From Actinomycetota bacterium (GTDB lineage: Bacteria; Actinomycetota; AC-67), in NCBI GenBank assembly GCA_046712825.1, contig JBKKCR010000096.1, forward strand, positions 590 through 64,589: a stretch of 64,000 nucleotides of DNA, in the 5' to 3' direction. Below are positions 17,483-58,422 of this stretch, piece by piece. Each line of letters opens with the position of its first letter. The stretch's first letter is position 1. Under the pieces are notes generated by a model. It was not told where the DNA came from. It did no database searches and was given only the letters and a program-made list of their open reading frames with translations. The position numbers and the translations under genes are program-made.

Positions 17483-17508
17483 GCGGCCCCCGGTTTCCCG
17501 GGAGCCGC
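17483..17508. terminator. GC-rich hairpin (gcggcccccgg-tttc-ccgggagccgc) between convergent genes
   Basis: Read from the sequence; one mismatch in an 11-bp stem. Confidence 0.35.
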
Positions 17509-17581
17509 GTTGGAGCATCCCTCGCAGGCTATAGGGATGATTCGCTATTTCCGGGCGGACTCCTGCTTGCGAAGAGAAGTC

Positions 17582-18598: not shown

Positions 18599-18602
18599 CG
18601 GT

Positions 18603-19859: not shown

Positions 19860-19865
19860 GACGAC

Positions 19866-21272: not shown

Positions 21273-21291
21273 CAACCCACGGTGGGCGGCG

Positions 21292-21963: not shown

Positions 21964-22038
21964 CGGCCGGAAAGCATAGCCGCTCGTTCCCCGACTCTCC
22001 GGCGCCGTCGGCTGCCTCTTCGGCTCGTTTCGGGCGTT

Positions 22039-24304: not shown

Positions 24305-24384
24305 AGGTGAGGCACGGCTCCAGGGGATCGCAGCAATACCTTCGCACGGTTCTGTTACAAGCCACCCACAGGGAGGGGGCGACA

Positions 24385-24967: not shown

Positions 24968-26239
24968 CTAACGTTCCGCGTCGTTCCCGAGGGCGAACCG
25001 GTAATACGTGAGGCGGGCAACCCTTCCGTCCTCGAGGGTGACGGCCAAGATCCGGAGATGCAGAGACCCATCCGGGGCAGCGAACTTCATCACGGCCGTG
25101 GACGTCGGGACCCCCGGATGCAGATCGCCGGCCACCTGACGGCCGTCGAGCGCGGGGTCGTTCCGGGTCTCCTCGGCCAGTCGGTCCCACGCGGCGGCGC
25201 CGCGGCCCTTCCAATCGCCGCTCGGCGCGACGACCCGCACCAAGACCGACCCAAGGAGCGATTCGTTCAGCTCGTTCGCGCGCCGGCCGACGACCGCGGC
25301 GGCGATGCGGTCCACGGTCCTTTGGATATCCGTGATCTGTGAGACGTCGCTGCGCGCGCGATGCCCGCGCTCCCGGTCACGCAGCCGTCCACGCAAACGC
25401 CGCAGCGGCGGTTCGGGAAGCGGAGCCGCGGCACCGCTTGCCGACTTCGCGGCGAACTCCGGCTCGAGGTATCCCAAGCGCTCGAGGGTTCCGCCGGCGA
25501 CTTTCATAAGTGCGCTCAGGTCTGTCTCCGAGATCTTTTCGCGCCACTTCCCGGCACCCACCCGTCCGGTCGTCGGGTCCTGGTTGAAGGCGACCTTCGC
25601 CTCGCGGAGCGCCTCCTCGACCATCACCGGTGTCGCCGGGAGTCCGAACCATGCGAAGAGCTCCGCGACGTGAGCCTGTGGATCTACGAGCATCTCCTCG
25701 TAGCGGACGGTCCGAAATCGCTCCAGGCCCGCGCTCGCGGTTTCTGCGGCCTCGACCGAGCTACGCCACTCCATCGCCGCTTCCTCGAACGTGCGCGGAG
25801 CGTTCTTCCACGGCTGGGTCATGAGAGACCGTGCGACGTCGCGTCCATCACGGACGATGTTCAGGATCCACGCATCGGGATAGATCTCGCCGATCAGCTC
25901 GAGACACGTCACGTGCTCCGGGGTTCGCTCGGCCAGGCGCGTGGCGCCGGGGACGGTCTTGAGGAAGGGCAAGAAGACCCCGTCGCATAGGTTGCGCAGC
26001 GCGCGGGTCATCTCGCTTGGGTCCATGTACACGAAAGCCGTTCCCGGCGACCCCAGCACGCCGTGGTGGAAGCGCTCCCGGAGCGGCTTTATGCCTCGCG
26101 AGAAGAGATAGGTTTCCGAGGGCACCAAGGCCACCTCGGGGTGAGCGCCGAGGATGCGCTGTACCCAGTTGGTGCCGCTGCGGCGTGCGCCGACTAGGAA
26201 GATCATCCGGTCGCGCAGTGGTCCTTCGATGGAGCCCAT
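24968..26239 (-). CDS. Sulfotransferase domain (PAPS 5'-PSB loop GARRSGTNW) fused to a C-terminal ~150-aa NTF2/SnoaL-like domain
   Basis: MIFLVGARRSGTNWVQRILGAHPEV... then a RDV arginine region; C-terminal extension beyond a normal ~280-aa sulfotransferase. Confidence 0.6.
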   Translation of the reverse strand: MGSIEGPLRDRMIFLVGARRSGTNWVQRILGAHPEVALVPSETYLFSRGIKPLRERFHHGVLGSPGTAFVYMDPSEMTRALRNLCDGVFLPFLKTVPGATRLAERTPEHVTCLELIGEIYPDAWILNIVRDGRDVARSLMTQPWKNAPRTFEEAAMEWRSSVEAAETASAGLERFRTVRYEEMLVDPQAHVAELFAWFGLPATPVMVEEALREAKVAFNQDPTTGRVGAGKWREKISETDLSALMKVAGGTLERLGYLEPEFAAKSASGAAAPLPEPPLRRLRGRLRDRERGHRARSDVSQITDIQRTVDRIAAAVVGRRANELNESLLGSVLVRVVAPSGDWKGRGAAAWDRLAEETRNDPALDGRQVAGDLHPGVPTSTAVMKFAAPDGSLHLRILAVTLEDGRVARLTYYRFALGNDAER

Positions 26240-26272
26240 CCGATATGGTTCGATACCGGCGTCCTCAGCCCT

Positions 26273-26848
26273 TTACGGGCACGACCCGTTCCCTGCCGCG
26301 AGCGTGTAGACCAGATCGAACTGCCCCTCCTGGGTGATGACTCGCACCAAAGCCGGGCCCGACGGAGCGTTGGCGGGAGGTATCCAGACGCTGCGGAAAA
26401 CGCCGCTGCTGTCGGCGAACTTTGCGTCGTAGCCCGTCTTGTAGTCCGACTTCCCATCCACGCTGGAGCTGCCGTCCGAGTAGAGGGTGTTGAACCCGGC
26501 GGGACCTCCGGGGGCCGTTTGGACCGTGATGCCCTGGGTGTCGACGCCGGCACGCGCGCACGTGAGATCCAGCCGACCGGTCGATCCTCCGGTCGCGGTT
26601 GCCGAGGGCGACGGCTTCGTGGTCTTGGGGATATTCGTCGGTGTGCCGAAAGCGACGGGAGGCGACGACGTGGCGGGCGTCGTCGGCGTGGAGGTCCCGA
26701 CGGTATTTGTGGTCCCAAGGGCCGTCGGCTGCGCGCCCGGCTCCTTGTCGCCGCCGCATGCCGAAAGAACGATCGCGAGGGCCAGCACGCCCCCGCGAAT
26801 GAGGAAGCCGCCGCGCCGTCGTGAGGCTGAGTGATGAGAAGTGTTCAT
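26273..26848 (-). CDS. Lipoprotein (lipobox LSACGG) with Thr/Pro-rich linker
   Basis: ORF track; signal peptide plus Cys. Confidence 0.55.
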   Translation of the reverse strand: MNTSHHSASRRRGGFLIRGGVLALAIVLSACGGDKEPGAQPTALGTTNTVGTSTPTTPATSSPPVAFGTPTNIPKTTKPSPSATATGGSTGRLDLTCARAGVDTQGITVQTAPGGPAGFNTLYSDGSSSVDGKSDYKTGYDAKFADSSGVFRSVWIPPANAPSGPALVRVITQEGQFDLVYTLAAGNGSCP

Positions 26849-26928
26849 GGTTTCGGCCCTGAAGGGAGCCGAATCTTACACCTCGACCGGGGAGGACGCG
26901 GGTCGCCCGCCGGGACGCAGCCGGTACC

Positions 26929-27792
26929 ATGACCCGCATGCAACCCGTGGAAACGCCGCAACCGAGGCTGCCCACGTTCGTCATCATCGGCGCCATGAAA
27001 TCGGGGACGACCACGCTCGGGGCCTATCTCAATGCCCACCCCGACGCGTACTGCGCTCAAGAGCCGCACTTCTTCGACCAGAACTTCGAGCGAGGGGTGC
27101 CGTGGTACCGCGAACGCTTCCGGGACGCCGGGGCTGCGGCGGTGGTCGGCGAGAAGTCGCCTTCCTACATGTATCACCCGGATGCGATCCGGAGGCTCAC
27201 CGAGGTCTTGCCGGATGCCCGGCTGGTCGCGATCCTTCGGCATCCGGGTCACCGCGCATATTCGCACTACTGGCACGAGCGGCGGATCAAACAAGAGACG
27301 CTTTCCTTCGGCGACGCCCTCGACGCGGAGCCGCGCCGGCTGCGCGACTACGCGGACGGCCTGTGCCCCTTCGCCTACGTGGACCGCGGCCTCTACCTGG
27401 AGCAGCTCCGGCGCGTGGTCGGGTTCGCGCCGAGGGAGCGGCTGCTCGTGCTGCTCTTCGAGGATCTCCTGCGGGTGCCCGTGGAAACCTACTCCGAACT
27501 CGGTCGCTTCCTCGGCATCGACGGCTCTTTGGCCGCCCCGCCGGGCCCGGAGGAGTCGAACGCGTACCGCACCTATCATCCGGAATGGGCTTGGAAGCTG
27601 ATGCACCGGTATCGGCTCTGGGGACGCCTTCCGCGCCCGATCGCGGGACGGCTGTGGCGTGCGATGCAGCGCGAGGCGACGTATCCGCCGATCACCGAGG
27701 CGCAGCACGCGCGACTCCTCGATCGTTTCGCGGAACCCAACCGCGAGTTGGCCGATTGGTTAGGGCGCGACCTCTCCGAGTGGAGCGTCTGA
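26929..27792 (+). CDS. Sulfotransferase (heparan-sulfate/Sulfotransfer_3-like)
   Basis: PTFVIIGAMKSGTTTL (5'-PSB K-x-G-T-T) ... ILRHPGHRAYSHY (3'-PB region). Confidence 0.75.
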   Translation: MTRMQPVETPQPRLPTFVIIGAMKSGTTTLGAYLNAHPDAYCAQEPHFFDQNFERGVPWYRERFRDAGAAAVVGEKSPSYMYHPDAIRRLTEVLPDARLVAILRHPGHRAYSHYWHERRIKQETLSFGDALDAEPRRLRDYADGLCPFAYVDRGLYLEQLRRVVGFAPRERLLVLLFEDLLRVPVETYSELGRFLGIDGSLAAPPGPEESNAYRTYHPEWAWKLMHRYRLWGRLPRPIAGRLWRAMQREATYPPITEAQHARLLDRFAEPNRELADWLGRDLSEWSV

Positions 27793-27802
27793 ACTACCGG
27801 AG

Positions 27803-28633
27803 CTAGCCGATGCCCCAGCCGTCGAAGCCGGGCGGCATGTAGGCGCGCAGCCGCTCGACCGTCGGCTGCAGCCGCTCCCGAAGTTCCGACTCGACCGTGG
27901 CGGGAACCGCAACCGAGTCGGGAGCAGTGTGCCGCGTTGTGAGGCGCCGCAGCCTCCGCGCGATCGGTCGGGGCGTGGAGGGCCGTTCGGCGAGACGCCG
28001 CAGGGCCGGGATGCGATCGCCAAGGAGCGTCGGCGCAGGCTTGTCCTCGGTCCGGTGAAGCCTCTCGTCCAGGTTCGGCGGTGTCCGGCGGTCGTCCACC
28101 CCGATGAAGCCATAGATCGTTCGCAGGGTATCGGCGCGACGATCATCGAGCTCTTCGCTCGTCACGATCAGCAGCTGCTCACGAGGGAAGGACCCGAGGT
28201 ATCGCTCGATCTGGGTCGCGTAGTCGCTCAACGCGAACAGCATCGGGTTCGTCAAGAGGACTTCCGATGCCGGCCCACGTTCGCCGTACTCCGCAACATG
28301 GTGGAGGTACTGCGAAACCATGCGCCGGATGGGATGACGAACGACGTACACCATGCGCGCTTCGGGCAGCACCCGCTTGATGCGCTCGGGAACCCCCGGA
28401 AAGAACGGATGTTTCGTGTAGGAGGTCGAAGCCTCGCCTCGAGCGGCAGCGGCACCGCCCGATGCGAAGCAGCTCTCGTACCAGTCGACGCCGCGTTCCC
28501 AATTCTTGCCTTCGACGAAGAATTCGAGCTCCTTCGGCTCGGCCATGAACACGTCTGGGTGCGCTTGAAGGTACGCGTGGAGGCTCGTCGTGCCCGCCTT
28601 CATCGCGCCGATAACCAGGAAGGTCGGAAGCAT
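27803..28633 (-). CDS. Sulfotransferase (tandem duplicate of 28944..29777)
   Basis: MLPTFLVIGAMKAGTTSLHAYLQAHP...; start by frame arithmetic in ORF 27803..28774. Confidence 0.75.
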   Translation of the reverse strand: MLPTFLVIGAMKAGTTSLHAYLQAHPDVFMAEPKELEFFVEGKNWERGVDWYESCFASGGAAAARGEASTSYTKHPFFPGVPERIKRVLPEARMVYVVRHPIRRMVSQYLHHVAEYGERGPASEVLLTNPMLFALSDYATQIERYLGSFPREQLLIVTSEELDDRRADTLRTIYGFIGVDDRRTPPNLDERLHRTEDKPAPTLLGDRIPALRRLAERPSTPRPIARRLRRLTTRHTAPDSVAVPATVESELRERLQPTVERLRAYMPPGFDGWGIG

Positions 28634-28678
28634 CTGAGCTCGCACGATAACACCGGGTTGGGGGCGGCTGGGGGCCGA

Positions 28679-28790
28679 GACTACAGCACGATCGTCCGTG
28701 AGCTGATCGACCCGCGCACCATCGCGGTGACCTCCGCGAGATCGACGATCAGCGCGCCGGGAAGCTCCAGCCATCGCTGCCGGCGTCCCT
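28679..28790 (-). pseudogene. Relic of the 3' end of a GT2 gene, carried along with the sulfotransferase duplication
   Basis: ORF 28681..28941 ends ...RRQRWLELPGALIVDLAEVTAMVRGSISSRTIVL, near-identical to the C-terminus of the GT2 at 29778..30764 (...RRQRWLVLPGALLVDLAEVTAMVRGSISSRTIVL); DNA ~85% identical over ~110 bp. Confidence 0.5.
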
Positions 28791-28943
28791 CGACGACGAT
28801 CCGATCGACGACGACACGCCGACCGAACGGGGTGAGCCGCGCGTTACGATGAGCCACGAGAGCCTCCTCTCGGTTCGCACCTCGACAGCCCAAACCGTGC
28901 AGGGAGGCTCTCTCTTTGTAAAGAACGGCGCTGGGAACCACAA

Positions 28944-29777
28944 CTAGGCGATACCCCAGCCGTCGAATCCGGGCCCCATGTAGGCGCGCAGCTTCATGAT
29001 GTCGGGGCGGATCTGCGCGCGGATCCGCTCCTCGAGCTCCGCGGGGAGCTCTAGCGTGGACGTCGTCAGCGTCTTCGTGGTCACCCGGAAATGCAGGCGG
29101 CGGAGGGGAGCCGGAGTGAGCCTGGCGGCCGCGCGGTACAGACGGTTGTCGCGTATCTTTTCGATCGACTCCTTGCGGAGGTAGACCTCCCCGGTCGTGT
29201 TCGTCCGGCTCGACACCTCAGGCGGCGTCCAGCCCGGATCGACATCGAGGAAGGAGTAGACCGAGCGCATTGTCTCCACATACGAACCACGCAAGCCTTC
29301 GGTCGTGATGAGGAGGATCTGCTCGCGCGGGAAGTGACTCAGATAGTGCTCCAGTTGCCACGCGTACTGACTCGCGCGCACGTACCCGGGATGCTCACGC
29401 AAGGCCCGCTCCGGCGACCGCGACTCGCTTCCGGCGCGCAAGCGCTCCAGGTAGTGGGAGCGTAGACGCTTCATCGGGTCGCGTAACAGGTAGATGAGCT
29501 TCGCGTCCGGGATCAGGTCCGCGATCCGACCCGGCACTCCCGGATATGCATGGGCGAGTGTGTACTCCGGCGAGGCTTCTCCGATTGCCGTGGCGTCCCC
29601 AGCGCCGGCGAATTGGTCCAGGTACCAGTTCTGCCCGCGCCCCCAGTTCTTCTCCGCGATGAAATAAGCGAGCTCCTTTTCGGCCGGAGTGAAGATCTGC
29701 GGGTGGGCTCGCAGGTGGTGCCAGAGGCTGGTGGTCCCCGCCTTCATCGCGCCGATGACCAAGAAGGTCGGAAGCAT
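28944..29777 (-). CDS. Sulfotransferase
   Basis: MLPTFLVIGAMKAGTTSLWHHLRAHP...; ~50% identical to 27803..28633. Confidence 0.75.
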   Translation of the reverse strand: MLPTFLVIGAMKAGTTSLWHHLRAHPQIFTPAEKELAYFIAEKNWGRGQNWYLDQFAGAGDATAIGEASPEYTLAHAYPGVPGRIADLIPDAKLIYLLRDPMKRLRSHYLERLRAGSESRSPERALREHPGYVRASQYAWQLEHYLSHFPREQILLITTEGLRGSYVETMRSVYSFLDVDPGWTPPEVSSRTNTTGEVYLRKESIEKIRDNRLYRAAARLTPAPLRRLHFRVTTKTLTTSTLELPAELEERIRAQIRPDIMKLRAYMGPGFDGWGIA

Positions 29778-30764
29778 CTACAAGACGATCGTTCGTGAAC
29801 TGATCGATCCGCGCACCATCGCCGTAACCTCGGCGAGATCCACGAGAAGCGCGCCGGGAAGCACGAGCCAGCGCTGTCGCCGTCCCTGAGCGAGCGGCGC
29901 CGTCCGCACCCGATACCAGATCCAAGGGATCGCAAGCAGCAGCGCTGCGCGCTTGCGCGGCGCCAGGAGCAAACCGGCCATGGCGGCCAGCGCGGTCGGA
30001 TGAGACGGCTTCCAGAAGAGCCCTCCGTACAGATAGCCGCGCCCTTCCGGGTGCAACTTGACGACGCGGGGGATACCCGTCCATTTGAGCGCGTCCCGGG
30101 TTGCCGCGCGCAGGTCGCTCGGCTTCACGTCGTGATGCACGAGCGCCTCGGGCGCGAAGATGGCTTCCACGCCGCGGCGACGGATGCGCCAGCCGAGGTC
30201 GGTGTCTTCACCTCCGTGACGGCTGAAGGCCTCGTCGAAGCCGCCTGCTGCCTCGAGGTCGCTCCGGCGATAGAAGATGTTGCACGTCTCGAAGTAGGTG
30301 GCGTCCCTGACCGTGATCGTCCGTGAGAACGGGCCTTCAAGGTGCTGCTGGGCCGGGTCGGGGAGCGTGCGGCCGACGACGATCCGGGGACCCGCCCCCA
30401 GAGCTTCCAGACCTCGCTCGAGCCACGACGGCGTCGGGACGCAATCGTCGTCGGTGAACGCGACGACCGGTGCACGGGCACGGCCCCAGCCGATGTTGCG
30501 CGCGGCCGCCTGCCGCCGGTTGCGGCCGTCTCCGAGGATCTCGATGGACAACGTGCTGCGTCGCGCCAGGCCGGCGAGCAGCTCCACGGTTCCGTCGGTG
30601 GAGCCGTCGTCGACGAAGATCACCTCGAAGGAGCTCGGTGGAAGCGTCTGGGCCTCGAGCGCGCCGATGAGCCGCGGGAGGAGCTCGGCGCGATTGTAGG
30701 TTGCGATCACGACCGAGACGCGCGGGGCATCGCCGTTCGCGCTGCCGCGCTTCAGGCGCGCCAT
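29778..30764 (-). CDS. Glycosyltransferase family 2
   Basis: VSVVIATYNRAELLPRLIGALEAQT...EVIFVDDGSTDGT...AFTDDDCVP; start MARLKRG by frame arithmetic. Confidence 0.8.
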   Translation of the reverse strand: MARLKRGSANGDAPRVSVVIATYNRAELLPRLIGALEAQTLPPSSFEVIFVDDGSTDGTVELLAGLARRSTLSIEILGDGRNRRQAAARNIGWGRARAPVVAFTDDDCVPTPSWLERGLEALGAGPRIVVGRTLPDPAQQHLEGPFSRTITVRDATYFETCNIFYRRSDLEAAGGFDEAFSRHGGEDTDLGWRIRRRGVEAIFAPEALVHHDVKPSDLRAATRDALKWTGIPRVVKLHPEGRGYLYGGLFWKPSHPTALAAMAGLLLAPRKRAALLLAIPWIWYRVRTAPLAQGRRQRWLVLPGALLVDLAEVTAMVRGSISSRTIVL

Positions 30765-31591
30765 GACGACAAGTCCCTCCCGAGAAGCTGTTCGAGGCCG
30801 GCGATCTGGTCCGCGTATGCCTGGACGAGGCGGCGGCGAAGCTCGGGATCCATCGGCTCGTACGTGCTGCGGTCCGGACGCACGTTCATCGCGTTGATAC
30901 GCCAAGCCCACGAGCGCGGGATGCGACGCTTCAGGCGGGCCTTCAACACCGCCTCTCTCAGACGCACGGAGCGGACGCGCATCCGCGGATTGTAGGTCTT
31001 GCCCAGGTTGTCGGGCCGGTACCCGTCGTCGACGCCGAGGAATCGGCAGGCGTCGCCATACACGCCCGAAGCGTCCGACGCCAGATCCTCGAATAGCATC
31101 ACCATCAACGCCGAGGGCGGAAAGAGGCCGTGGAGTTTCCGGATCTGTTCCAGGTATCTGCCTCGAGCGAGGTAGAAGCCGAACGGTGGCGCCGTCCCCG
31201 CAAGCTCCTCGTCCACGACTTGAGCGAGCGGACGCTTTTCGCGGCCGATCGCACGGAGGTGGAGGAACTGCGAGTAGATCCGCTCCGCGGGATGCCGCAG
31301 GATCGCGATCATGCGGACGTCGGGCAGTAGCTTCGCCATCCGGTCCGGAACGTCCGGATGGGCCATGTACCCGGGGGTCGCCTCACCGATGGCGGGTTTG
31401 CCGGCACCGGCAGCGAACTGCGCTCGGTACCACTCTTCTCCCGCCTCGTAGCGATGAGGGTTGTCGAAGAAGTGAAGTTCCTTCTCCGAGGGGATGAAGA
31501 CCTCGGGGTGTTCGCGCAACCATGCCGCGAGCGAGGTGGTTCCGGCTTTCATCGCACCGATGATGAGGAAGTTCGGCAGCGGCGCGGTCAT
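30752..31591 (-). CDS. Sulfotransferase
   Basis: LPNFLIIGAMKAGTTSLAAWLREHP ... MIAILRHPAERIYSQF. Confidence 0.75.
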   Translation of the reverse strand: MTAPLPNFLIIGAMKAGTTSLAAWLREHPEVFIPSEKELHFFDNPHRYEAGEEWYRAQFAAGAGKPAIGEATPGYMAHPDVPDRMAKLLPDVRMIAILRHPAERIYSQFLHLRAIGREKRPLAQVVDEELAGTAPPFGFYLARGRYLEQIRKLHGLFPPSALMVMLFEDLASDASGVYGDACRFLGVDDGYRPDNLGKTYNPRMRVRSVRLREAVLKARLKRRIPRSWAWRINAMNVRPDRSTYEPMDPELRRRLVQAYADQIAGLEQLLGRDLSSWRA

Positions 31592-31604
31592 CTCGTTGCC
31601 CGCC

Positions 31605-32477: not shown

Positions 32478-32559
32478 CGGTCTCCAGGCTCTCGCTACAG
32501 GCACGGGGTGACCCGTCCGAGGCATTCTACCGGCGGGTTTCGACCTGCAGGGTAGGCTG

Positions 32560-33411
32560 TTGCGGTTCGGCTTCTTGATGGAGGATCGAGTGGATCGAAG
32601 CGATCGTTCCGGGCTCGCGGGTGCGAAAGTGGTCGCCCACAAGGCGCTCGCGTGGGCGAAGCGTCACGAAGCCGAGGGAGCACGAGCGATCTACGGCGCA
32701 CGCCGCGCCGCGTTCATCGCGCGGATGAAGGTCCAGGCCGCGTGGCAAGGGGCCCAGGTCGACGTCGAGGTCGCTCCCGACGTCCGATTCGGCAAGGACA
32801 TCGCGATCACGGTCTGGCCGGGCTCGCGCAACAGCATCCGCATCGGAGCGGGTTCGCGCATCGGCGACCGCGTGCTCTTCATCCTGAACGACGGACGCAT
32901 CGACCTCGGCGACAACGTCGAAGTGCGCAGGGACAGCACGTTCATGATGTGGGGGGGCTCGCTCGAGCTCGCAGGCGACAACATCCTGTCGTGGGGCAAC
33001 GTGATCCATTGCGCGTCGTCGATCCGGCTCGGCAGGATGACGTCCACCAACGAGTGGGTCACGATCGTCGACTCGAGCCACTACTTCACCACGCCCGACG
33101 AGTTCTTCTACCACAACACCAAAACCGGCCCGATCGAAGTCGGCAAGAACACGTGGATCTGCTCCAAGGCGACGCTGGCGCGCAACGCGAAGATCGGCGA
33201 TCACTGCATCATCGCGGGCAACTCGATCGTGAGCGGCGAGGTCCCCTCGGGGCACCTCGCGTCGGGCGTCCCCGCGCAGGTCGTTCGCGAGCTGGAGCTG
33301 CCGTGGAGACAGTCGGCCCCAACGCTGGTGGGCGCGACGGAACCTCGCAAGCCGGCGAAGCGCCGTCCCGCCGCGCGCAAGCCGCCGAAGCCGGCCGAGC
33401 CGACCGACTAG
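32560..33411 (+). CDS. Left-handed beta-helix (hexapeptide-repeat) acyl/acetyltransferase
   Basis: Repeated [LIV]G-x-x-x-x-[LIV] hexads: IGAGSRIGDRVLF, DLGDNVEV, IGDHCIIAGNSIVSGEVP. Confidence 0.7.
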   Translation: MRFGFLMEDRVDRSDRSGLAGAKVVAHKALAWAKRHEAEGARAIYGARRAAFIARMKVQAAWQGAQVDVEVAPDVRFGKDIAITVWPGSRNSIRIGAGSRIGDRVLFILNDGRIDLGDNVEVRRDSTFMMWGGSLELAGDNILSWGNVIHCASSIRLGRMTSTNEWVTIVDSSHYFTTPDEFFYHNTKTGPIEVGKNTWICSKATLARNAKIGDHCIIAGNSIVSGEVPSGHLASGVPAQVVRELELPWRQSAPTLVGATEPRKPAKRRPAARKPPKPAEPTD

Positions 33412-34022
33412 CTCCGCCGATCGATCTGCACGGCGGCGACCACGAAACCATCCGCCGTCGCGTAGCGAGCCGTGAAGGTCGGCGGAACCCGGGCATCGAT
33501 CGCGTGGCTCACGATCCGTCCCTCGAGCATCCCGGGACTTGCTTCGATGTACGCGACGTCCTGGAACCCAAGTCGCCTCGCGCCGAGCGGCGCGAGGGCC
33601 TTGTACGTCGCTTCCTTGACGCAGAACAGAGCGAGCAGTACATGGGGCTCGGCAAATCGCGACAGCTCTTCGGGGGTGCAGATACGCCGCGCGGTTCGCG
33701 TGTTGATGTGGCGCCCTTGGGCCTCGACGTCGATGCCCAGGCTCTCCAGTTCACCGGTGGAGGCGGTCACCGCGATCGCGACATCGTTCGTGTGGGCTAT
33801 GGAGCCGGTCAGTCCTGAGGGCCACACGGGCTCGCCGTCTGGTCCACGAGGAACGTCCGGCTGTGTCGTGCCGAGGTCCTTCATCGCGGCCGCCGCCGCC
33901 TCGCGACCGGCGACGAACGGACCGGCGCCACCGACCGCGACCACTCCGATCCCGACCGTGACCCGGAAGAGGGCACGCACGGCGTCGATGGACGGAGCAG
34001 GCTCAGAGATGGGGAGGGTCAC
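33408..34022 (-). CDS. 4'-phosphopantetheinyl transferase, Sfp/EntD type
   Basis: WPSGLTGSIAHTNDVAIAVTAS...LGIDVE and FCVKEATYKA (PPTase motifs 2 and 3). Confidence 0.7.
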   Translation of the reverse strand: MTLPISEPAPSIDAVRALFRVTVGIGVVAVGGAGPFVAGREAAAAAMKDLGTTQPDVPRGPDGEPVWPSGLTGSIAHTNDVAIAVTASTGELESLGIDVEAQGRHINTRTARRICTPEELSRFAEPHVLLALFCVKEATYKALAPLGARRLGFQDVAYIEASPGMLEGRIVSHAIDARVPPTFTARYATADGFVVAAVQIDRRS

Positions 34023-34053
34023 GGCTCAGGCCTCGAACCGTATAGTTGGCCCA

Positions 34054-34809
34054 ATGGACATACCGGGTTTGCAGCGTACCTGGGATGAGCTCGGCCGCAC
34101 CGATCCGCTCTGGGCGGTCTTGTCCTTGCCCGACAAGCGCGGGGGACGCTGGGAGCTCGATGAGTTCCTCGCAACCGGCGTCCGCGAGATCGATGAGGTG
34201 CTCGCCAGGGTGCGAGCGCTCGGGCTCGGACCGGTGCTCGGCAGGGCGCTCGACTTCGGCTGCGGCGTCGGCCGGCTCACGCAGCCACTCGCGGGCCGCT
34301 TCGAAGAGGCCACCGGCGTCGACATCGCTCCCTCGATGATCGAGCGGGCGAAGAGCATCAACAAGCACGGGGAGCGCTGCCGGTACGTGCTGAACGACCG
34401 CGACGATCTCGGGATCTTCCCCGACGGAACGTTCGACTTCATCTACTCGAGCATCACCCTGCAGCACATGCCGCGGCCGCTGATGATGACCTACGTCGCG
34501 GAGTTCATCCGACTGTTGACCCCTGCCGGCGTCCTCGTGTTCCAGCTCCCCGCGCGGCCACCTCGCACCTTGCGCAGCCGGCTGAAGCGCTTGGTGCCGT
34601 CGGTTCTTCGGACGAGGTGGCGACGTTTCCGGCACAAGCGGGGAGCGGAGGCTCGGATGCAGATGTTCTGGACCTCCCCGGAACGAGTAGCGAGACTGGT
34701 GCGCCGCTCCGGCGGGCGGATCGAGGCCGAGCAGGACGACTACTCGGCAGGCCCGGGCTGGACGGGAAAGCGATACGTGGTCCGCCGCGCCGGGGCAGCC
34801 GCGTCGTAG
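34054..34809 (+). CDS. Class I SAM-dependent methyltransferase (paralog of 49524..50243)
   Basis: LGRTDPLWAVLS...ALDFGCGVGRLTQPLAGRFEEATGVDIAPSMIERA...ITLQHMP; internal ATG of ORF 33472..34809. Confidence 0.7.
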   Translation: MDIPGLQRTWDELGRTDPLWAVLSLPDKRGGRWELDEFLATGVREIDEVLARVRALGLGPVLGRALDFGCGVGRLTQPLAGRFEEATGVDIAPSMIERAKSINKHGERCRYVLNDRDDLGIFPDGTFDFIYSSITLQHMPRPLMMTYVAEFIRLLTPAGVLVFQLPARPPRTLRSRLKRLVPSVLRTRWRRFRHKRGAEARMQMFWTSPERVARLVRRSGGRIEAEQDDYSAGPGWTGKRYVVRRAGAAAS

Positions 34810-34822
34810 CGACCGGCTCGCC

Positions 34823-35671
34823 TCAGCCTCGGCGCGTGATCCTGCCGGTCCATCGAGCGGCGAGCACCACCGCGTGGACGGGACCGAGGTGCCGTCGCCG
34901 GAGCGCCGGCCCGTCGGCGGCAACCTGATCGATGGCGGTGCCGAGGCGGAGGAGCATGGCGCCGTCCCGCCAGGGCTTCGGCCGGATCCCGTAGCGAGCC
35001 AGCTCGGAGAATCCCATCCCGAGCTTGCGATGCAGCGCCCAGGTGTCGCGCAGCGTCGCGCGCGGGTGGTGCTTCACCTGCGCCTCGGCCGCGTACACGA
35101 GCCGGTAACCGGCGCGCGACGCCCGCCGACAAAGCTCCTGATCTCCCGAGGCGGTGAGCTGCGGCACGAACCCTCCGAGGTCGGCGAACACCTTCGCTCG
35201 CACGAACAGGTTGGCGGTCGCGGCGAAGTGCTCGACCCGGATGTACAGATCCTGATCGAGGTAGGTCGCGCGGTCGTAGCGCTCCCAAACCGACGGGTCC
35301 GGGCTCGCCATCTGCACGATCCGCCCTCCGACGAGGTCGGCACCGCCGTCGAGGGCGGCGACGCCTTCGGCGAGCCACCGCGGATCGGGAAGACAGTCGG
35401 CGTCGGTGAACGCGAGGATCTCTCCTCGAGCGGCGGCGATGCCGGTGTTCCGGGCCGCGTACGGGCCGCGAGCGGGCTCCATCTCGAGTCGAGCGCCGAT
35501 CCTGTGGGTCCGCACCAGGTCCGGCGTCGCGTCGCGCGATCCGTTGTCGACCACGATCACCTCGAACGGCGGCGCGCCTTCTTGCGCCGCGAGCGCATCG
35601 AGACACGCGGTAACGCGCCGGGCCTCGTTCAGCACCGGCATGATCACGCTGACGCGCGGCGCTCCCGTCAT
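34823..35671 (-). CDS. Glycosyltransferase family 2
   Basis: VSVIMPVLNEARRVTACLDALAAQ...EVIVVDNGSRDAT...AFTDADCLP. Confidence 0.8.
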   Translation of the reverse strand: MTGAPRVSVIMPVLNEARRVTACLDALAAQEGAPPFEVIVVDNGSRDATPDLVRTHRIGARLEMEPARGPYAARNTGIAAARGEILAFTDADCLPDPRWLAEGVAALDGGADLVGGRIVQMASPDPSVWERYDRATYLDQDLYIRVEHFAATANLFVRAKVFADLGGFVPQLTASGDQELCRRASRAGYRLVYAAEAQVKHHPRATLRDTWALHRKLGMGFSELARYGIRPKPWRDGAMLLRLGTAIDQVAADGPALRRRHLGPVHAVVLAARWTGRITRRG

Positions 35672-36750
35672 CCGATCATGGTCTCGTAGAGGCCGTCCAT
35701 CGCTCGGGCAGTCTCCGCCCAGTCGAAGCGCTTCACCCATTCCGGACCGGCGGCGCCCATGCGCCGCGCGAGCGGTTCGTCGGAGAGCACGCGCTCGAGT
35801 GCGTCCGCCAGCCCGGCAGGGTCGTTCTCGGGGACGACCAGCGCGGTGCGGCCCTCATCCACGAACTCGGGGATCCCGCCGTGACGGGTCGTGACGACCG
35901 GCCGGCCGCTCGCCATCGCCTCGAGGTTGACGAGGAGCAACGTCTCGACGTCACCGTCGGCTGCCGTGCGGCTCGGCGTCACGATCACGCGGGCTCGCCT
36001 GATGGCGTCGCGCACCTGCGTACCTCGCCGTGACGGATCGGCCGGCTCCACGACGACGCCCTCGCCGCCCGAGTGCGCGAGGTTCTCGAGCGGACCGAAG
36101 CCGAGAAGGACCAACCGAGCTCCGGGCACGCGACGCCGGACCTCCTCCCACGCTTTCAACAGGACGTCGAGGCCCTTCTTCTCGACGAAGCGTCCGACGA
36201 ACAGGGCCTCCGGGACACCGTCGGGAAGCGGCGTCGGTGTGAAGAACGACGTCTCGACCCCCGACGGGATGACGTGTATGCGGTCGCCTGGAACTCCGGC
36301 CTCCTCGACCGCGCCGATGATGAATCGCGACGGGACGACCACGGCATCGGCTACCCGCAGCGGGTCGACGACCCCCGGCCACTGCCGCGCGTACGCCGTA
36401 ACGTCTTGCCCGTGGACCGACACGACCAGGGGCAGCTTCATGCGGCGCACGGCACCGAGCACATCCGAAAGACGGTACGCGTGGTGGTGATGGACGAGCT
36501 TCGCGCGATGAGCCGTCCCGATCGACACGATCGCAGCCGTCAGGATCCGTCGCTCGGCGATCGTGGGCGGGTCGTGCCGTTTCGCCAGGCGCGCGAGGCT
36601 GTAGAGCGGCTTGATCGGGAACGTCTCGCGGTTCTCGATGGCGTCGCGAGAAACCACCACGACCTTGTGCCTCGTGCGCGTGAGGAGCGTGTGCACGAAC
36701 TGCTCCGACAGCGGCAGATACCGCTGCATCGTGTGGAGCACCGTATTCAT
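35668..36750 (-). CDS. Glycosyltransferase family 4
   Basis: ...LVNLEAMASGRPVVTTRHGGIPEFV...; ATGA-type overlap with the downstream GT2. Confidence 0.8.
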   Translation of the reverse strand: MNTVLHTMQRYLPLSEQFVHTLLTRTRHKVVVVSRDAIENRETFPIKPLYSLARLAKRHDPPTIAERRILTAAIVSIGTAHRAKLVHHHHAYRLSDVLGAVRRMKLPLVVSVHGQDVTAYARQWPGVVDPLRVADAVVVPSRFIIGAVEEAGVPGDRIHVIPSGVETSFFTPTPLPDGVPEALFVGRFVEKKGLDVLLKAWEEVRRRVPGARLVLLGFGPLENLAHSGGEGVVVEPADPSRRGTQVRDAIRRARVIVTPSRTAADGDVETLLLVNLEAMASGRPVVTTRHGGIPEFVDEGRTALVVPENDPAGLADALERVLSDEPLARRMGAAGPEWVKRFDWAETARAMDGLYETMIG

Positions 36751-36784
36751 CTCACGGCCCGTCCGCCCCGCGGAGCCCGAGCGA

Positions 36785-38533
36785 TCATGCCGATGCTGCG
36801 CTGGGCTCCCCGGATCCGATGTAGCCCTCACGCTCGAGGTGCAACACGATCTGCTGGGCGGCTTCCTCAGGCGTGAGCTCGGTGGTATCGATCGTGATGT
36901 CGGCGTCCACGGGCTCCTCGTATGGATCCGAGATCCCGGTAAACTCCTTGAGGATCCCGGCGCGGGCCTTGGCGTAGAGCCCCTTCCGGTCGCGCTCCTC
37001 GCAGATCTCGAGCGGCGTCGCGACGTGGATCAGCACGAACCCGCCCATCGGCTCGATCATCCCGCGCACCTCTTTGCGGATGCTGTCGTAGGGCGCGATC
37101 GGGGCACAGATCGCTATGCCGCCGTTCTTGGTGATCTCGGACGCCACATAGCCGATGCGACGGATGTTGATGTCGCGATGCTCGCGGGAGAAGCCGAGCT
37201 CCGAAGACAGGTTCTTGCGAACCAGATCCCCATCGAGCATCGTGACCGGCCGCCCGCCCATCTCGAGGAACTTCACGAACAGCGCGTTCGCGATCGTCGA
37301 CTTCCCCGATCCCGACAGCCCGGTGAAGAAGACTGTGAGTCCCTGCTTGTGCCGCGCCGGATGCGTCTTGCGTAGCTCGGTGACGACCTCGGGGAACGAG
37401 AACCAGCTCGGGATATCGCGACCGTCCCCGAGCCGTTCGCGCAGCTCGGTTCCCGAGATATCGAGCACGCGCTCGCCTTCGGGCACCTCGTCCTCGGGGA
37501 AGTACGTGTCCCGGTCGGGCACGTAGAGCATCTGGCGGAACGGCACCATCCCGACGCCCAGTTCCTCCTCGTACTTCCGGAGCAGGTCCTGCGCGTCGTA
37601 GGGGCCGTAGTAGGGCGTTCCCTCGGGATCCTTGCCCGGTCCGGCGTGGTCGCGTCCCACGATGAAATGGGTGCAGCCGTGGTTCTTGCGGATGATCGCG
37701 TGCCAGACGGCCTCACGCGGTCCGGCCATGCGCATCGCCAGCGGCAGCAACGCCAGCTTCGCCGAGTACGACGGATAGCGATGCATGAGCGCCTCATAAC
37801 AGCGGACGCGTGTGTAGTGGTCGACGTCGCCGGGCTTGGTCATCCCGACCACCGGGTGCACGAGTAGGTTCGCCTCGAGCTCCTTGGAGGCGCGCAGCGT
37901 CAGCTCGAAATGCGCGCGGTGCATCGGGTTCCGCGTCTGGAACGCGACGATCTGCCGCCACCCCAGTCGCGAGAACTCCTCTCGGAGCTGCCGTGGCCCG
38001 AGGCGAAGTCCCGTGTAGTCGTAATGGATCGGCAGTTGGAGCCCCTCGATCTTGCCGCCAACGAACCACGCGTGCGTGCGGTCGGCCAGGTGCCCGACGC
38101 CGGGATGAGAGGTGTCGGTGTTTCCGTACACCTGCTCTGCCTCGGCCATCCGATCCGGCTTCCACACGTCGGTGATGTGGAGGACGGCGAGCATGACGCC
38201 TTCGGGATCCCGCAGCGCGAGCGCAGCGCCCGACCCGAGGCCCTTCGCGACGTCCTCGGTGACGTCGAGCACGACGGGGATGGGCCACAGCGTGCCGTCC
38301 GCCAAGCGCATGCGCTCGCAGACCTCCCGATGGTCCGCCTCCCCCATGAACCCCTCAAGCGGAGAGAAGCCGCCGGTGAGCAAGAGTTCCAGGTCGCAGA
38401 TCTGGCGGGGGGTCAGGTCCCAGGACGGCCATTCGCGGGAGGCGACCTTGAGCTGTGCCGAGCGGTTCTCGTCGGTCATGAGGTCGACGAGGCTGCCGCC
38501 GTGGGGCGGGATGAGATGGTCTTGGGCGCTCAC
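36785..38533 (-). CDS. Bifunctional sulfate adenylyltransferase (ATP sulfurylase) / adenylylsulfate kinase = PAPS synthase
   Basis: N-terminal sulfurylase (QTRNPMHRAHFEL, HFIVGRDHAGPG) plus C-terminal APS kinase (GLSGSGKSTIA Walker A, DGDLVRKNLSSELGFS). Confidence 0.85.
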   Translation of the reverse strand: MSAQDHLIPPHGGSLVDLMTDENRSAQLKVASREWPSWDLTPRQICDLELLLTGGFSPLEGFMGEADHREVCERMRLADGTLWPIPVVLDVTEDVAKGLGSGAALALRDPEGVMLAVLHITDVWKPDRMAEAEQVYGNTDTSHPGVGHLADRTHAWFVGGKIEGLQLPIHYDYTGLRLGPRQLREEFSRLGWRQIVAFQTRNPMHRAHFELTLRASKELEANLLVHPVVGMTKPGDVDHYTRVRCYEALMHRYPSYSAKLALLPLAMRMAGPREAVWHAIIRKNHGCTHFIVGRDHAGPGKDPEGTPYYGPYDAQDLLRKYEEELGVGMVPFRQMLYVPDRDTYFPEDEVPEGERVLDISGTELRERLGDGRDIPSWFSFPEVVTELRKTHPARHKQGLTVFFTGLSGSGKSTIANALFVKFLEMGGRPVTMLDGDLVRKNLSSELGFSREHRDINIRRIGYVASEITKNGGIAICAPIAPYDSIRKEVRGMIEPMGGFVLIHVATPLEICEERDRKGLYAKARAGILKEFTGISDPYEEPVDADITIDTTELTPEEAAQQIVLHLEREGYIGSGEPSAASA

Positions 38534-39575: not shown

Positions 39576-39600
39576 CGAGGAGACCGAAGGGCTCGCGCGC

Positions 39601-58418: not shown

Positions 58419-58422
58419 CGCG

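Follow-up and report, generated by a model that had tools for sequence, protein, structure and literature searches.

What would an uncultured soil actinobacterium, a member of the monoderm Actinomycetota, sulfate with a battery of sulfotransferases encoded beside a PAPS synthase and a glycan exporter? The question arises from the 64-kb stretch of DNA analyzed here (the window), in which the original prediction had placed a system for a sulfated cell-surface polysaccharide or glycolipid at 24968-38533. All genes named in that prediction were found where it had located them, in reading frames backed by GC3, and Pfam bore out the GT2 and GT4 glycosyltransferases, the methyltransferase, the hexapeptide transferase, the Sfp-type phosphopantetheinyl transferase (PPTase) and Wzm/Wzt (Table 1).

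The glycan locus exceeds the predicted interval, spanning ~42 kb (about 12.3-54.1 kb of the window). This span encodes 13 glycosyltransferases, one priming phosphoglycosyltransferase, five methyltransferases and one acetyltransferase (Pfam). It also encodes Wzm/Wzt, of which Wzt carries a Wzt_C domain, a ligase-like protein of the Wzy_C type and a pair of secreted GH99-like enzymes. The reading with the best support is still that of a system for a sulfated cell-surface glycan, with family identities, motifs and synteny in its favor. Specifically, the locus likely makes a sulfated, methylated heteroglycan that is put together in the cytoplasm and leaves it through the ABC transporter Wzm/Wzt (a probability of roughly 70%). 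Nucleotide-sugar genes were absent from the 64-kb window, which counts against this reading in its detail.

Table 1. Features of the locus and its edges (positions in the window)
Position	Strand	Feature	Evidence and remarks
10104-10727		Lipoprotein	Locus edge
12021-12308		Tiny LPRTG-anchored peptide	Locus edge
12298-24089		Left arm	DUF4012 protein, GH99-like enzyme, three methyltransferases, two GT2, two GT4, 469-aa alkaline-phosphatase-superfamily enzyme (Pfam)
14059-15540		GH99-like paralog, left arm	Pfam Glyco_hydro_99; secreted
15494-16333; about 16330-17463; 21292-21963		Methyltransferases, left arm	Pfam
17582-18760; 23166-24089		GT2, left arm	Pfam
18603-19859; 22039-23469		GT4, left arm	Pfam
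19866-21275	-	Larger cytoplasmic alkaline-phosphatase-superfamily enzyme, 469 aa	Threonine nucleophile WTLPSHASMFTGMLP, read directly
24307-24900	+	Small secreted four-cysteine protein	Signal peptide; 94-96% conserved
24968-26239	-	ST423 sulfotransferase	N-terminal TPST/NoeE-like PAPS domain; C-terminal NTF2-like domain (residues about 290-420)
26273-26848	-	Lipoprotein, mid sulfotransferase block	Lipobox LSAC|GG; Ser/Thr/Pro-rich linker, conserved C-terminal domain
26929-27792	+	ST287, heparan-sulfate 3-OST/NDST-like	Pfam; GAMKSGTT, RHPGHRAYS; conserved-trio member
27803-28774	-	ST323, heparan-sulfate 3-OST-like	Pfam; GAMKAGTT, KELEFF, RHPIRRMVS; conserved-trio member; start probably further in, about 28633
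28944-29777	-	ST277, heparan-sulfate 3-OST-like	Pfam; variable accessory sulfotransferase
29778-30911	-	GT2 with Glyco_transf_7C-like region, among sulfotransferases	Pfam; 79% ortholog in L082
30752-31699	-	ST315, heparan-sulfate 3-OST-like	Pfam; GAMKAGTT, KELHFF, RHPAERIYS; variable accessory sulfotransferase; start probably further in, about 31591
31605-32642	-	Small cytoplasmic alkaline-phosphatase-superfamily enzyme	Threonine nucleophile; start probably about 32474, product 289 aa
32560-33411	+	Hexapeptide-repeat (left-handed beta-helix) acyltransferase	Pfam Hexapep; 84% ortholog in L082
33408-34022	-	Sfp-type 4'-phosphopantetheinyl transferase	Pfam 4PPT_N, ACPS; NCBIfam PptT/Npt weak
34030-34809	+	SAM-dependent methyltransferase MT4	Pfam; frame plot: ORF 33472-34809 coding from about 34030
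34823-35740	-	GT2, third in PAPS synthase-GT4-GT2 run	Pfam; synteny in JGI contig, L081, L082
35668-36831	-	GT4, directly downstream of PAPS synthase	Pfam; orthologs 93% (L081), 81% (L082)
36785-38533	-	Bifunctional sulfate adenylyltransferase/APS kinase (Sat-CysC fusion), PAPS synthase	Pfam PUA_2, ATP-sulfurylase, APS_kinase
38730-39575	+	Wzm, ABC-2 permease of glycan exporter	Pfam ABC2_membrane; six TM-like segments
39508-40845	+	Wzt, ABC ATPase with C-terminal carbohydrate-binding Wzt_C	Pfam ABC_tran, Wzt_C (53 bits, cut-off 30)
41030-42478	+	GH99-like enzyme, secreted or anchored	Pfam Glyco_hydro_99; N-terminal signal anchor
42774-43328	+	PCP/Wzz-like small membrane protein	TM scan; Wzz-like by sequence reading only
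43325-45145	+	Wzy_C (O-antigen-ligase-like) protein, 14 TM	Pfam Wzy_C; TM scan
45164-54120		Right arm	Three GT2, three GT4, methyltransferase, Bac_transf priming enzyme (Pfam)
45164-46450; about 46450-47355; 47352-48287		GT2, right arm	Pfam
48284-49399; 51952-53121; 53086-54120		GT4, right arm	Pfam
49392-50243		Methyltransferase, right arm	Pfam
50269-51744		Priming Bac_transf phosphoglycosyltransferase, right arm	Pfam

Sulfotransferases and their conservation

A 7-kb stretch contains the genes of five PAPS-type sulfotransferases (Pfam E-values 1e-13 to 6e-27), and all five products score above the gathering cut-offs of Sulfotransfer_3 and Sulfotransfer_1, in agreement with the prediction. The anticipated PAPS loop, K-x-G-T-T, appears as GAMK(A/S)GTT in four paralogs and as GARRSGTN in the fifth, ST423; the 3'-PB motif R-x-x-x-x-R-x-x-S was also found in every one. 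All five thus keep both the 5'-PSB and the 3'-PB residues, the loss of which had been named as evidence against the assignment. The Glu that is catalytic in heparan-sulfate 3-O-sulfotransferases is preserved in the four paralogs, as is the TPST-type Glu in ST423; a sequence scan detected no signal peptide or transmembrane (TM) segment in these proteins. ST277 matched PDB 3RNL (E = 4e-26), human HS3ST3A1/1/5 (E = 1e-15 to 1e-13) and NDST1 (4e-11), whereas ST423 resembles TPST, with a C-terminal region resembling the NTF2-like fold.

Syntenic loci were found in Actinomycetota metagenome-assembled genomes and in soil metagenomes. In a JGI soil contig with six sulfotransferase genes and in locus L081, a mosaic despite 90-92% identity, synteny covers Wzm/Wzt as well as the PAPS synthase, GT4, GT2 and the sulfotransferases; MT4 is missing from both (blastn for L081). 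The comparison with L083 (Actinomycetota assembly GCA_040905475.1) covers the sulfotransferase block, with six such genes, and the left arm, which is collinear at 87-91% nucleotide identity; that with L082 runs from GT4 downstream and includes GT4, GT2 and three sulfotransferases in synteny. Three sulfotransferase orthogroups are conserved across the syntenic loci, and the rest vary, even among near-identical strains. ST287 has orthologs at 91% identity in L083 and 62% in L082, and ST323 at 91% and 79%, respectively (both 276 aa). The closest ortholog of ST277 is merely 67% identical (JGI P0004), with a shifted position in L081, and the top ortholog of ST315 reaches 54% (L083).

Sulfate activation

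The predicted ATP-sulfurylase/APS-kinase matched the NCBIfam equivalog NF004040 at 920 bits (curated cut-off, 669), and its translation contains the motifs QTRNPMHRAH, GRDHAG, GLSGSGKST and LDGD, with both active sites intact. The enzyme is a Sat-CysC fusion encoded inside the cluster and not a CysDN, which would have spoken against a role in the cluster. Its gene heads a co-directional run with GT4 and GT2 that points away from wzm-wzt, a position that the JGI contig and L081, both related loci, preserve, and in the distant locus L104 a PAPS-synthase homolog lies directly upstream of an ST423 homolog. This synteny suggests that the PAPS synthase may be dedicated to the cluster, as predicted. 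That it is instead the general assimilatory sulfate-activation enzyme of the organism and happens to sit here, sulfation not being specially provisioned, appears quite unlikely. Its nearest homologs (67-73% identity), from Acidobacteriota, Gemmatimonadota and one Actinomycetes MAG, lack adjoining sulfotransferases or a similar locus, as might fit a general role, but the conserved place in front of GT4 and GT2 and the renewed adjacency to an ST423 homolog in L104 argue against it. Furthermore, APS kinase is dispensable for assimilation in bacteria with APS reductase, among them most Actinomycetota, and a Sat-CysC shared with assimilation would supply the sulfotransferases anyway.

Export and modification enzymes

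Wzt matched Aquifex Wzt (PDB 8DKU/7K2T, E = 2e-66), TagH/TarH and M. tuberculosis RfbE. A TM scan revealed no Wzx flippase or other multi-TM exporter in the 64 kb, and no chain terminator to partner the Wzt_C domain was identified in the window. The GH99-like enzyme next to Wzt aligned with Bacteroides endo-alpha-mannosidase (PDB 4ACY, E = 1e-6), its NEWFEA facing NEWHEG. The Wzy_C and PCP-like proteins could belong to a second glycan, assembled differently. The hexapeptide acyltransferase is most similar to WbbJ/WcaF sugar O-acetyltransferases (NCBIfam WbbJ E = 2e-13, below cut-off).

Two NPP-type phosphodiesterases had been predicted within the interval. One is there (31605-32642); the other lies outside it, at 19866-21275. 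The nucleophile motif, T-x-P-S-H, is indeed of the NPP type, but the best Pfam family of both proteins is Sulfatase and not Phosphodiest (for the 19866-21275 product, E = 3e-25 versus 2e-10). The 19866-21275 product has PDB matches to choline sulfatase and arylsulfatase A, with Cys69 aligned to Thr and Arg73 to His. The 31605-32642 product, with threonine as its nucleophile (WTAPSHYNLLMGLLP), is not a sulfatase. Both enzymes lack a signal peptide or TM segment.

A model for glycan assembly

Enzyme families and their catalytic motifs, the order and conservation of the genes, and the location of the products as cytoplasmic or secreted were read from the data; from these, we infer the substrate, sequence of steps, sugar composition and final attachment site. 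The Bac_transf phosphoglycosyltransferase would prime synthesis on polyprenyl phosphate, and up to 13 GT2 and GT4 enzymes would build the whole chain at the cytoplasmic face of the membrane. The still cytoplasmic chain would be O-sulfated at several positions by the five soluble PAPS-dependent sulfotransferases, namely, the four heparan-sulfate 3-OST/NDST-like paralogs and the TPST/NoeE-like ST423, the NTF2-like domain of which probably aids acceptor binding; the Sat-CysC fusion would produce the PAPS locally. Five SAM methyltransferases would methylate the chain, the hexapeptide transferase would O-acetylate it, and the two threonine-nucleophile enzymes may be involved in phospho-modification. 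The Wzt_C domain is predicted to recognize the finished polymer via a terminal cap for export by Wzm/Wzt. Outside the cell, the Wzy_C ligase-like protein would handle the polymer, and the two secreted GH99-like enzymes would trim it.

Alternative products and acceptors

Rather than forming a free wall polymer or capsule, the sulfated glycan might be O-linked to protein, on the Gram-positive S-layer model: a lipid-carried chain, exported by Wzm/Wzt, would be transferred by a Wzy_C-type enzyme to Ser/Thr residues of surface proteins, for example the lipoproteins encoded in the locus. S-layer glycan clusters of Geobacillus and Paenibacillus encode WsaP, Wzm/Wzt, methyl capping and the Wzy_C enzyme WsaB. 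Here, a Wzy_C protein likewise occurs in a Wzm/Wzt locus lacking Wzx, the lipoprotein with the long Ser/Thr/Pro-rich linker is conserved within the sulfotransferase block (L081, L083 and L082), and another lipoprotein, the LPRTG-anchored peptide and secreted proteins are encoded at the locus edge. We nevertheless consider protein linkage unlikely: no S-layer protein was recognized in the window, Wzy_C proteins also serve as ligases or polymerases with non-protein acceptors, actinobacterial lipoproteins often have Ser/Thr/Pro linkers irrespective of locus, and the lipoprotein has no direct tie to glycosylation.

A narrower version of a protein acceptor concerns ST423, the sulfotransferase domain of which is structurally nearest to protein tyrosine sulfotransferases, counting against a glycan acceptor. 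It could sulfate tyrosines of an adjacent secreted protein or lipoprotein: proteins of the four-cysteine type (which has a paralog at 10795-11406) repeatedly adjoin ST423-type sulfotransferases, even in loci as distant as L100 and L138, and the neighboring lipoprotein has invariant tyrosines beside Asp/Ser. These tyrosines, however, lie outside strongly acidic TPST-type contexts; ST423 homologs are independently linked to glycan genes in distant loci, co-directional with Wzm-Wzt in L136 and L148 and with PAPS synthase in L104; the sole NCBIfam match of ST423 is NoeE, the fucose sulfotransferase of Nod factors; and NodH, a carbohydrate sulfotransferase, is a member of Sulfotransfer_3 (PMC11625862). 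Tyrosine sulfation thus seems very unlikely. The glycolipid branch of the original prediction fared worst: a sulfated glycolipid or small glycoconjugate of the sulfolipid-1, sulfated glycopeptidolipid or Nod-factor type, with the PPTase activating the carrier protein of its acyl moiety, is highly improbable. Loci of the multi-sulfotransferase clade do retain the Sfp-type PPTase, but the whole 64-kb window contains no ACP/PCP carrier-protein motif, PKS, NRPS, FAAL, MmpL, Pap-type acyltransferase or other lipid-assembly gene, the hexapeptide enzyme resembles acetyl-CoA-dependent O-acetyltransferases, and 13 glycosyltransferases, a polyprenyl-phosphate priming transferase and Wzm/Wzt with Wzt_C indicate a long polymer.

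Relation to known systems

The rarity of such loci had been overstated, given that published clusters combine an ABC exporter with sulfotransferases and genes for PAPS synthesis (PMC11641403), with a candidate in an actinomycete (PMC13390465). A sulfated capsule marked by a polysaccharide cluster with PAPS-synthesis genes and sulfotransferases has been proven chemically (PMC11641403). In its cluster logic, the present system, known from its genes, is similar to the sulfated-polysaccharide clusters of Vibrio KMM 8419 and synechan and to Actinoplanes wps-1. Polysaccharide loci in which sulfotransferases accompany a synthase of the sulfate donor are already described in other bacteria. For the sulfated heteroglycan favored here, the three-member conserved core, combined with strain-to-strain swap, gain and loss of the other sulfotransferases, suggests that related strains sulfate the glycan in different patterns.

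Extent and gene content of the glycan locus

Because the G+C content of the window is ~67% and raw ORF lists were swamped by spurious frames, real frames were picked by third-position G+C and frame plot, and the resulting ~60 predicted proteins were scanned against Pfam and NCBIfam. The original prediction placed a sulfated glycan locus, with five sulfotransferases and a dedicated PAPS synthase, at 24968-38533; frame selection and domain scans recovered every gene that it had named, each where it had been placed. The glycan locus itself is larger and spans ~12.3-54.1 kb, with seven GT2 (one of them the MftF match of the table) and six GT4 glycosyltransferases (Pfam) in addition to the other genes listed in the table. 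NCBIfam provided a sugar specificity for none of the glycosyltransferases in the window, apart from one out-of-context match to MftF. The flanks are unrelated to the glycan locus: a Liv-type amino-acid ABC transporter lies on the left, and cupredoxin and PQQ proteins, topoisomerase IB, and an ATP-dependent ligase on the right. Rfam and tRNA scans of the window yielded no matches, and consensus scanning for promoters and terminators produced site numbers no higher than in shuffled sequence.

Close homologs of the window proteins carry the label "MAG: Actinomycetota bacterium," and the predicted proteins display an LPRTG sorting signal and lipoboxes that agree with a monoderm organism. The LPRTG-bearing protein, encoded where the locus begins on the left, is a very small predicted sortase substrate that consists of a signal peptide, a ~30-residue mature peptide, LPRTG, a hydrophobic stretch, and a basic tail. 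Farther to the left, an 893-aa protein starts with a signal peptide and has a TM segment at its C-terminus, followed by an RRRR tail; it lacks a Pfam match and is possibly a large surface protein. Immediately to the right of the locus is a cluster of secreted copper and PQQ proteins: a ~630-aa protein with a C-terminal type-1 copper site (FCRIHPFM), a small cupredoxin, an amidohydrolase-like protein, and a PQQ beta-propeller-cupredoxin fusion.

Features of the glycan locus and its surroundings (positions in the window, strand in parentheses)
Feature	Position	Source or remark
893-aa protein	1863-4544(+)	
Four-cysteine secreted protein, paralog	10795-11406(-)	
Predicted sortase substrate	12021-12308(+)	
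GH99-like protein	14059-15540(+)	
Larger AlkP-superfamily enzyme	19866-21275(-)	469 aa
Four-cysteine secreted protein	24307-24900(+)	
Sulfotransferase ST423	24968-26239(-)	Pfam
Lipoprotein	26273-26848(-)	
Sulfotransferase ST287	26929-27792(+)	Pfam
Sulfotransferase ST323	27803-28774(-)	Pfam
Sulfotransferase ST277	28944-29777(-)	Pfam
Sulfotransferase ST315	30752-31699(-)	Pfam
Small AlkP-superfamily enzyme	31605-32642(-)	probable start 32474, giving 31605-32474(-)
Sfp-type PPTase	33408-34022(-)	
Methyltransferase	34030-34809	
PAPS synthase	36785-38533(-)	
wzm-wzt	38730-40845(+)	
GH99-like protein	41030-42478(+)	
GT2 with MftF match	45164-46450(+)	
Copper and PQQ protein cluster	53804-60348(+)	
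Bacterial type IB topoisomerase, STAS-domain protein, start of ATP-dependent DNA ligase	61165-64000	right end of window
Bac_transf priming phosphoglycosyltransferase	within ~12.3-54.1 kb	Pfam
SAM methyltransferases (n=5, including 34030-34809)	within ~12.3-54.1 kb	Pfam
WbbJ/WcaF-like hexapeptide acetyltransferase	within ~12.3-54.1 kb	
Wzy_C protein with 14 TM, PCP-like protein just before	within ~12.3-54.1 kb	
DUF4012 protein	within ~12.3-54.1 kb	

Five sulfotransferases and a PAPS synthase

All five sulfotransferases score above the gathering thresholds for Sulfotransfer_3 and Sulfotransfer_1 (Pfam; E 1e-13 to 6e-27), and the PAPS loop, predicted for four of them, was found in all five, together with the 3'-phosphate-binding (3'-PB) motif. 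Four are short paralogs (ST287, ST323, ST277, and ST315) with a mutual identity of 34-43%. The 5'-phosphosulfate-binding (5'-PSB) loop (P/G-x-x-K/R-x-G-T/S-T) reads GAMK(A/S)GTT in these four and GARRSGTN in ST423, where R20-S21-G22-T23 is invariant across 39 homologs. The 3'-PB motif (R-x7-S), represented by RHPxxRxxS or RDPxxRxxS in the paralogs and RDGRDVARS in ST423, aligns with those of HS3ST3A1 and TPST1. At the position of the HS3ST catalytic glutamate, ST323, ST277, and ST315 contain K-E-L-x-F/Y-F and ST287 contains E-P-H-F-F; S-E42-T of ST423 aligns with E-E-T of TPST1 and is invariant in homologs. With a 5'-PSB, a 3'-PB, and a predicted catalytic base, all five belong, at the level of sequence, to the PAPS-dependent sulfotransferase superfamily. 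No signal peptide or TM segment was found in these proteins.

The nearest solved structures to the four paralogs are the bacterial sulfotransferase 3RNL (E 4e-26) and human HS3ST3A1, HS3ST1, HS3ST5, and NDST1. The paralogs have the fold, the 5'-PSB and 3'-PB motifs, and the catalytic-Glu position (K-E-L-x-F-F vs N-E-V-H-F-F) in common with animal HS3ST/NDST, but only ~25-30% identity, and are soluble cytoplasmic proteins, whereas the animal enzymes are Golgi type II membrane proteins. The likeness to animal heparan sulfate extends to the action of several regiospecific sulfotransferases on one polymer, which in the window is predicted.

ST423 (423 aa) shares RSGT, the catalytic Glu-Thr, and RDGR-x-x-x-S with the paralogs, and its AlphaFold model (39 homologs, pLDDT 85.5) contains a distinct C-terminal alpha+beta domain. 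With helices packed on a curved antiparallel sheet in an alpha+beta cone, this domain fits the NTF2-like fold. At the sequence level, it is found in only 110 cluster representatives among 1.84 billion, and nearly all of these carry it at the C-terminus of 400-440-residue proteins, that is, in an ST423-type fusion. ST423 showed weak matches to NoeE (NCBIfam) and structural matches to Stf1 and Stf9. Its likeness to tyrosylprotein sulfotransferases (TPST/RaxST-like) is confined to the fold and motifs, and the genomic context favors a glycan substrate.

The bifunctional ATP-sulfurylase/APS-kinase of the original prediction was likewise confirmed. Pfam identified a fusion of PUA_2, ATP-sulfurylase, and APS-kinase, and the protein passes the NCBIfam equivalog NF004040 (920 bits against a cut-off of 669; residues 7-572). 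Both active sites are present (QTRNPMHRAH, GRDHAG, P-loop GLSGSGKST, and LDGD), and the sulfurylase motifs and the kinase P-loop are retained. Among 80 PAPS-synthase-centered loci from GTDB species representatives, mostly Acidobacteriota with 67-73% identity and used only as a negative control for PAPS synthase-sulfotransferase linkage, none holds this cluster.

Export route and glycan backbone

The exporter comprises Wzm (ABC2_membrane) and Wzt (ABC_tran with a Wzt_C carbohydrate-binding domain); Wzt is closest to that of Aquifex (E 2e-66), and a Bac_transf priming enzyme is also encoded. No Wzx-type flippase or other multi-TM exporter was detected within the 64-kb window. With its permease and ATPase, an enzyme for priming on polyprenyl-P, and Wzx missing, the locus has the makeup of a Wzm/Wzt pathway. 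In the Wzm/Wzt O-polysaccharide route, the chain is completed in the cytoplasm on a polyprenyl carrier. Cytoplasmic PAPS-dependent modification fits this route, in which the glycan has to be complete before the ABC transporter takes it out of the cytoplasm. The arrangement resembles the E. coli O8/O9a-type and Aquifex aeolicus (7K2T/8DKU) systems in combining an ABC-2 permease with a Wzt_C-containing ATPase. By analogy with the O8/O9a type, the methyltransferases in the window are candidate capping enzymes, although none of the five was recognized as a WbdD-like terminator for Wzt_C, and Pfam found no kinase domain. The organism is monoderm and therefore has no lipid A-core acceptor, unlike the O8/O9a type, and the sulfation predicted for the window is not among the features of the Wzm/Wzt model systems.

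On either side of the part of the locus that contains the sulfotransferases, a secreted GH99-like protein is encoded; the two are paralogs. Each has a signal anchor and an extra ~190-aa N-terminal domain and retains E-W-x-E, the catalytic motif of endo-alpha-mannosidases. Together with the six GT4 proteins and many methyltransferases, they provide only a hint of a backbone that is mannan-like and partly methylated. A glycosaminoglycan backbone gained no support: UDP-glucose dehydrogenase is missing, as are heparosan and chondroitin synthases. The GT2 protein with four C-terminal TM segments that matches the mycofactocin glycosyltransferase MftF (TIGR03965; 370 bits, above the cut-off of 280) is encoded next to Wzy_C, GT2, and GT4 genes. 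Because no mftA-E genes are nearby, this assignment was dismissed despite the equivalog pass, and automatic annotation would probably misname the gene.

Alkaline phosphatase superfamily enzymes and other associated genes

Two NPP-type phosphodiesterases had been predicted within the 24968-38533 interval, but just one of the two genes lies there. The T-x-P-S-H threonine motif speaks for the assignment, and the best Pfam match, Sulfatase, against it. Both enzymes contain T-x-P-S-H (WTLPSH and WTAPSH) in place of the C/S-x-P-x-R formylglycine motif, and in the region aligned with arylsulfatase A, Cys69 is replaced by Thr. Formylglycine-dependent sulfatases (Pfam Sulfatase, S1) are thus ruled out, and the two proteins are threonine-nucleophile members of the AlkP superfamily. 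The family of the small enzyme is very strongly conserved, with 6340 matches, the best 120 of which are at least 74% identical; identity is 75-87% in loci where neighbor genes show 40-60%. Its usual companions are a ~470-aa paralog and a GT2, including in loci that lack sulfotransferases (L164). In a sulfotransferase-rich JGI contig, the family occupies the center of an ST-ST-AlkP-ST-ST array. A role in removing PAP, the by-product of sulfotransfer, would tie the enzyme to sulfation; this specific link was rejected because the enzyme pair is also present in the sulfotransferase-free polysaccharide locus L164, and the small enzyme is therefore not sulfation-specific.

The predicted Sfp-type PPTase is real and is conserved in multi-sulfotransferase glycan loci (the syntenic JGI soil contig described below, L081, L082, and L083). 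Neither a carrier protein for it in the 64 kb (G-x-D-S motif in six frames; Pfam on small ORFs) nor a PKS or NRPS within the window was found. A small secreted four-cysteine protein is represented by two paralogs, and its genes directly adjoin ST423-type genes in close and distant loci (L100:11331-11660, L138:6754-7164). In the middle of the sulfotransferase block is a conserved lipoprotein with a Ser/Thr/Pro-rich linker and a C-terminal domain with invariant tyrosines in four loci (YSDGS..DGKS.Y.TGY); it could be a target of glycosylation or sulfation, or unrelated.

Related loci and variation of the sulfotransferase complement

A sulfotransferase identical to ST277 and a shorter call of ST423 are present in the public collection, both on a 64,797-bp NCBI contig. 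Syntenic loci were identified in public genome and metagenome collections. A JGI soil contig has the order GH99, Wzt, Wzm, PAPS synthase, GT4, GT2, PPTase, hexapeptide transferase, six sulfotransferases, and more glycosyltransferases. L083 (assembly GCA_040905475.1) also encodes six sulfotransferases, including two groups beyond those of the window, and L082, a forest-soil contig, shows protein identities of 46-87%. ST423, ST287, and ST323 form a conserved trio (89-91% identity in L083, 60-79% in L082); the best matches of the variable ST277 and ST315 are 67% and 54% identical, respectively. The flanks of L081 are 90-92% identical to the window at the nucleotide level, and the central sulfotransferase block (window 28900-32500 vs L081:6357-11234) is mosaic and rearranged. 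L081 carries two additional sulfotransferase genes between the acetyltransferase and the AlkP-superfamily gene, has an ST277-like gene in a different position (78% nucleotide identity), and lacks the methyltransferase adjacent to the PPTase. This variation among close relatives suggests diversifying selection on surface sulfation patterns.

A metagenome scan for the ST423 family yielded 80 loci, in which distant homologs (37-50% identical) are mostly the sole sulfotransferase of a glycan locus. The homolog is directly downstream of a PAPS synthase in L104, directly downstream of or near Wzm-Wzt in L136 and L148, and next to a homolog of the four-cysteine protein encoded to the left of ST423 in L100 and L138. 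The ST423-type enzyme and its PAPS synthase look like the ancestral sulfation module, and the heparan-sulfate-3-OST-like paralogs like a clade-specific expansion.

Parallels in known sulfation systems

The capsule cluster of Vibrio sp. KMM 8419 includes its own PAPS-synthesis genes (an extra cysNDC copy), three sulfotransferases, glycosyltransferases, an acyltransferase, and ABC export, and its authors regard PAPS genes and sulfotransferases in a polysaccharide cluster as a hallmark of sulfated polysaccharide synthesis (PMC11641403). The window shares with it PAPS genes, several sulfotransferases, glycosyltransferases, an acyltransferase, and the ABC-transporter route, but the Vibrio capsule is of the Gram-negative Kps type, with separate CysD, CysN, and CysC instead of a Sat-CysC fusion (PMC11641403), and three sulfotransferases instead of five or six. 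The Vibrio product has been proven by chemistry; that of the window is predicted from its genes. Synechan, made by the xss system of Synechocystis sp. PCC 6803, is a sulfated exopolysaccharide; its ratio of sugar to sulfate agrees with how many glycosyltransferase and sulfotransferase genes the cluster has, and the sulfotransferases act on a cytoplasmic lipid-linked intermediate; unlike the window, this cyanobacterial system is Wzx/Wzy-dependent, with two sulfotransferases and no in-cluster PAPS synthase (PMC8205485). The wps-1 cluster of Actinoplanes missouriensis encodes a heparan-sulfate-type and a second sulfotransferase, a methyltransferase, and a glycoside hydrolase, and the adjacent AMIS_7390, a sulfate adenylyltransferase/APS kinase gene, is required for the same phenotype (PMC13390465). 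Both are actinomycete polysaccharide clusters with sulfotransferases and Sat/APS kinase alongside; wps-1 differs in its Wzx/Wzy route, two sulfotransferases, and a cultured host with mutant phenotypes, and its sulfation is a candidate only (PMC13390465).

Sulfated polymers are also widely reported from environmental biofilms. In rhizobia, NodPQ supplies PAPS specifically for a sulfated glycoconjugate of the cell surface. The rhizobial NodPQ/NodH/NoeE and mycobacterial Stf systems differ from the window: their products are sulfated lipo-oligosaccharides or glycolipids, each relies on one sulfotransferase, and their PAPS synthase is of the CysDN-CysC type.

Interpretation

The most economical reading is that the locus would encode an ABC-transporter-dependent pathway for a complex heteroglycan that would be sulfated at multiple positions, methylated, and acetylated, all in the cytoplasm, with PAPS probably supplied by the enzyme encoded first in the gene run facing away from wzm-wzt. 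The logic of such a system matches the three published cases, Vibrio sp. KMM 8419, synechan, and wps-1. The locus is set apart from them by its phylum, by the use of Wzm/Wzt export in a monoderm, by how many sulfotransferases it has and to which families they belong, and by the NTF2 fusion; its most original aspects are the strain-variable sulfotransferase cassettes and the NTF2-fused family.

A bolder reading, which we consider unlikely, is that a wall glycan of soil Actinomycetota bears a "sulfation code" resembling that of heparan sulfate, in which a three-sulfotransferase core with swappable accessory cassettes would produce strain-specific patterns and the undescribed NTF2-fused family would be the founding enzyme. 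Under this reading, the cassettes may differ even between strains at ~90% nucleotide identity, and strain-specific sulfation could serve, for example, in phage evasion, metal binding, or host-surface binding. In its extreme version, the substrate of the NTF2-fused enzyme may be the secreted protein or the lipoprotein conserved alongside it, and this would amount to protein tyrosine sulfation in a Gram-positive bacterium.

To our knowledge, few sulfated polysaccharides of bacteria have been proven by chemistry, and Actinomycetota are the source of none of them. If the locus that we read as a heteroglycan pathway works as predicted, heavy multi-site glycan sulfation would extend to abundant uncultured soil actinobacteria, and the window would be a source of several soluble heparan-sulfate-3-OST-like sulfotransferases of bacterial origin and of a compact PAPS synthase, which could serve in the enzymatic making of sulfated glycans.
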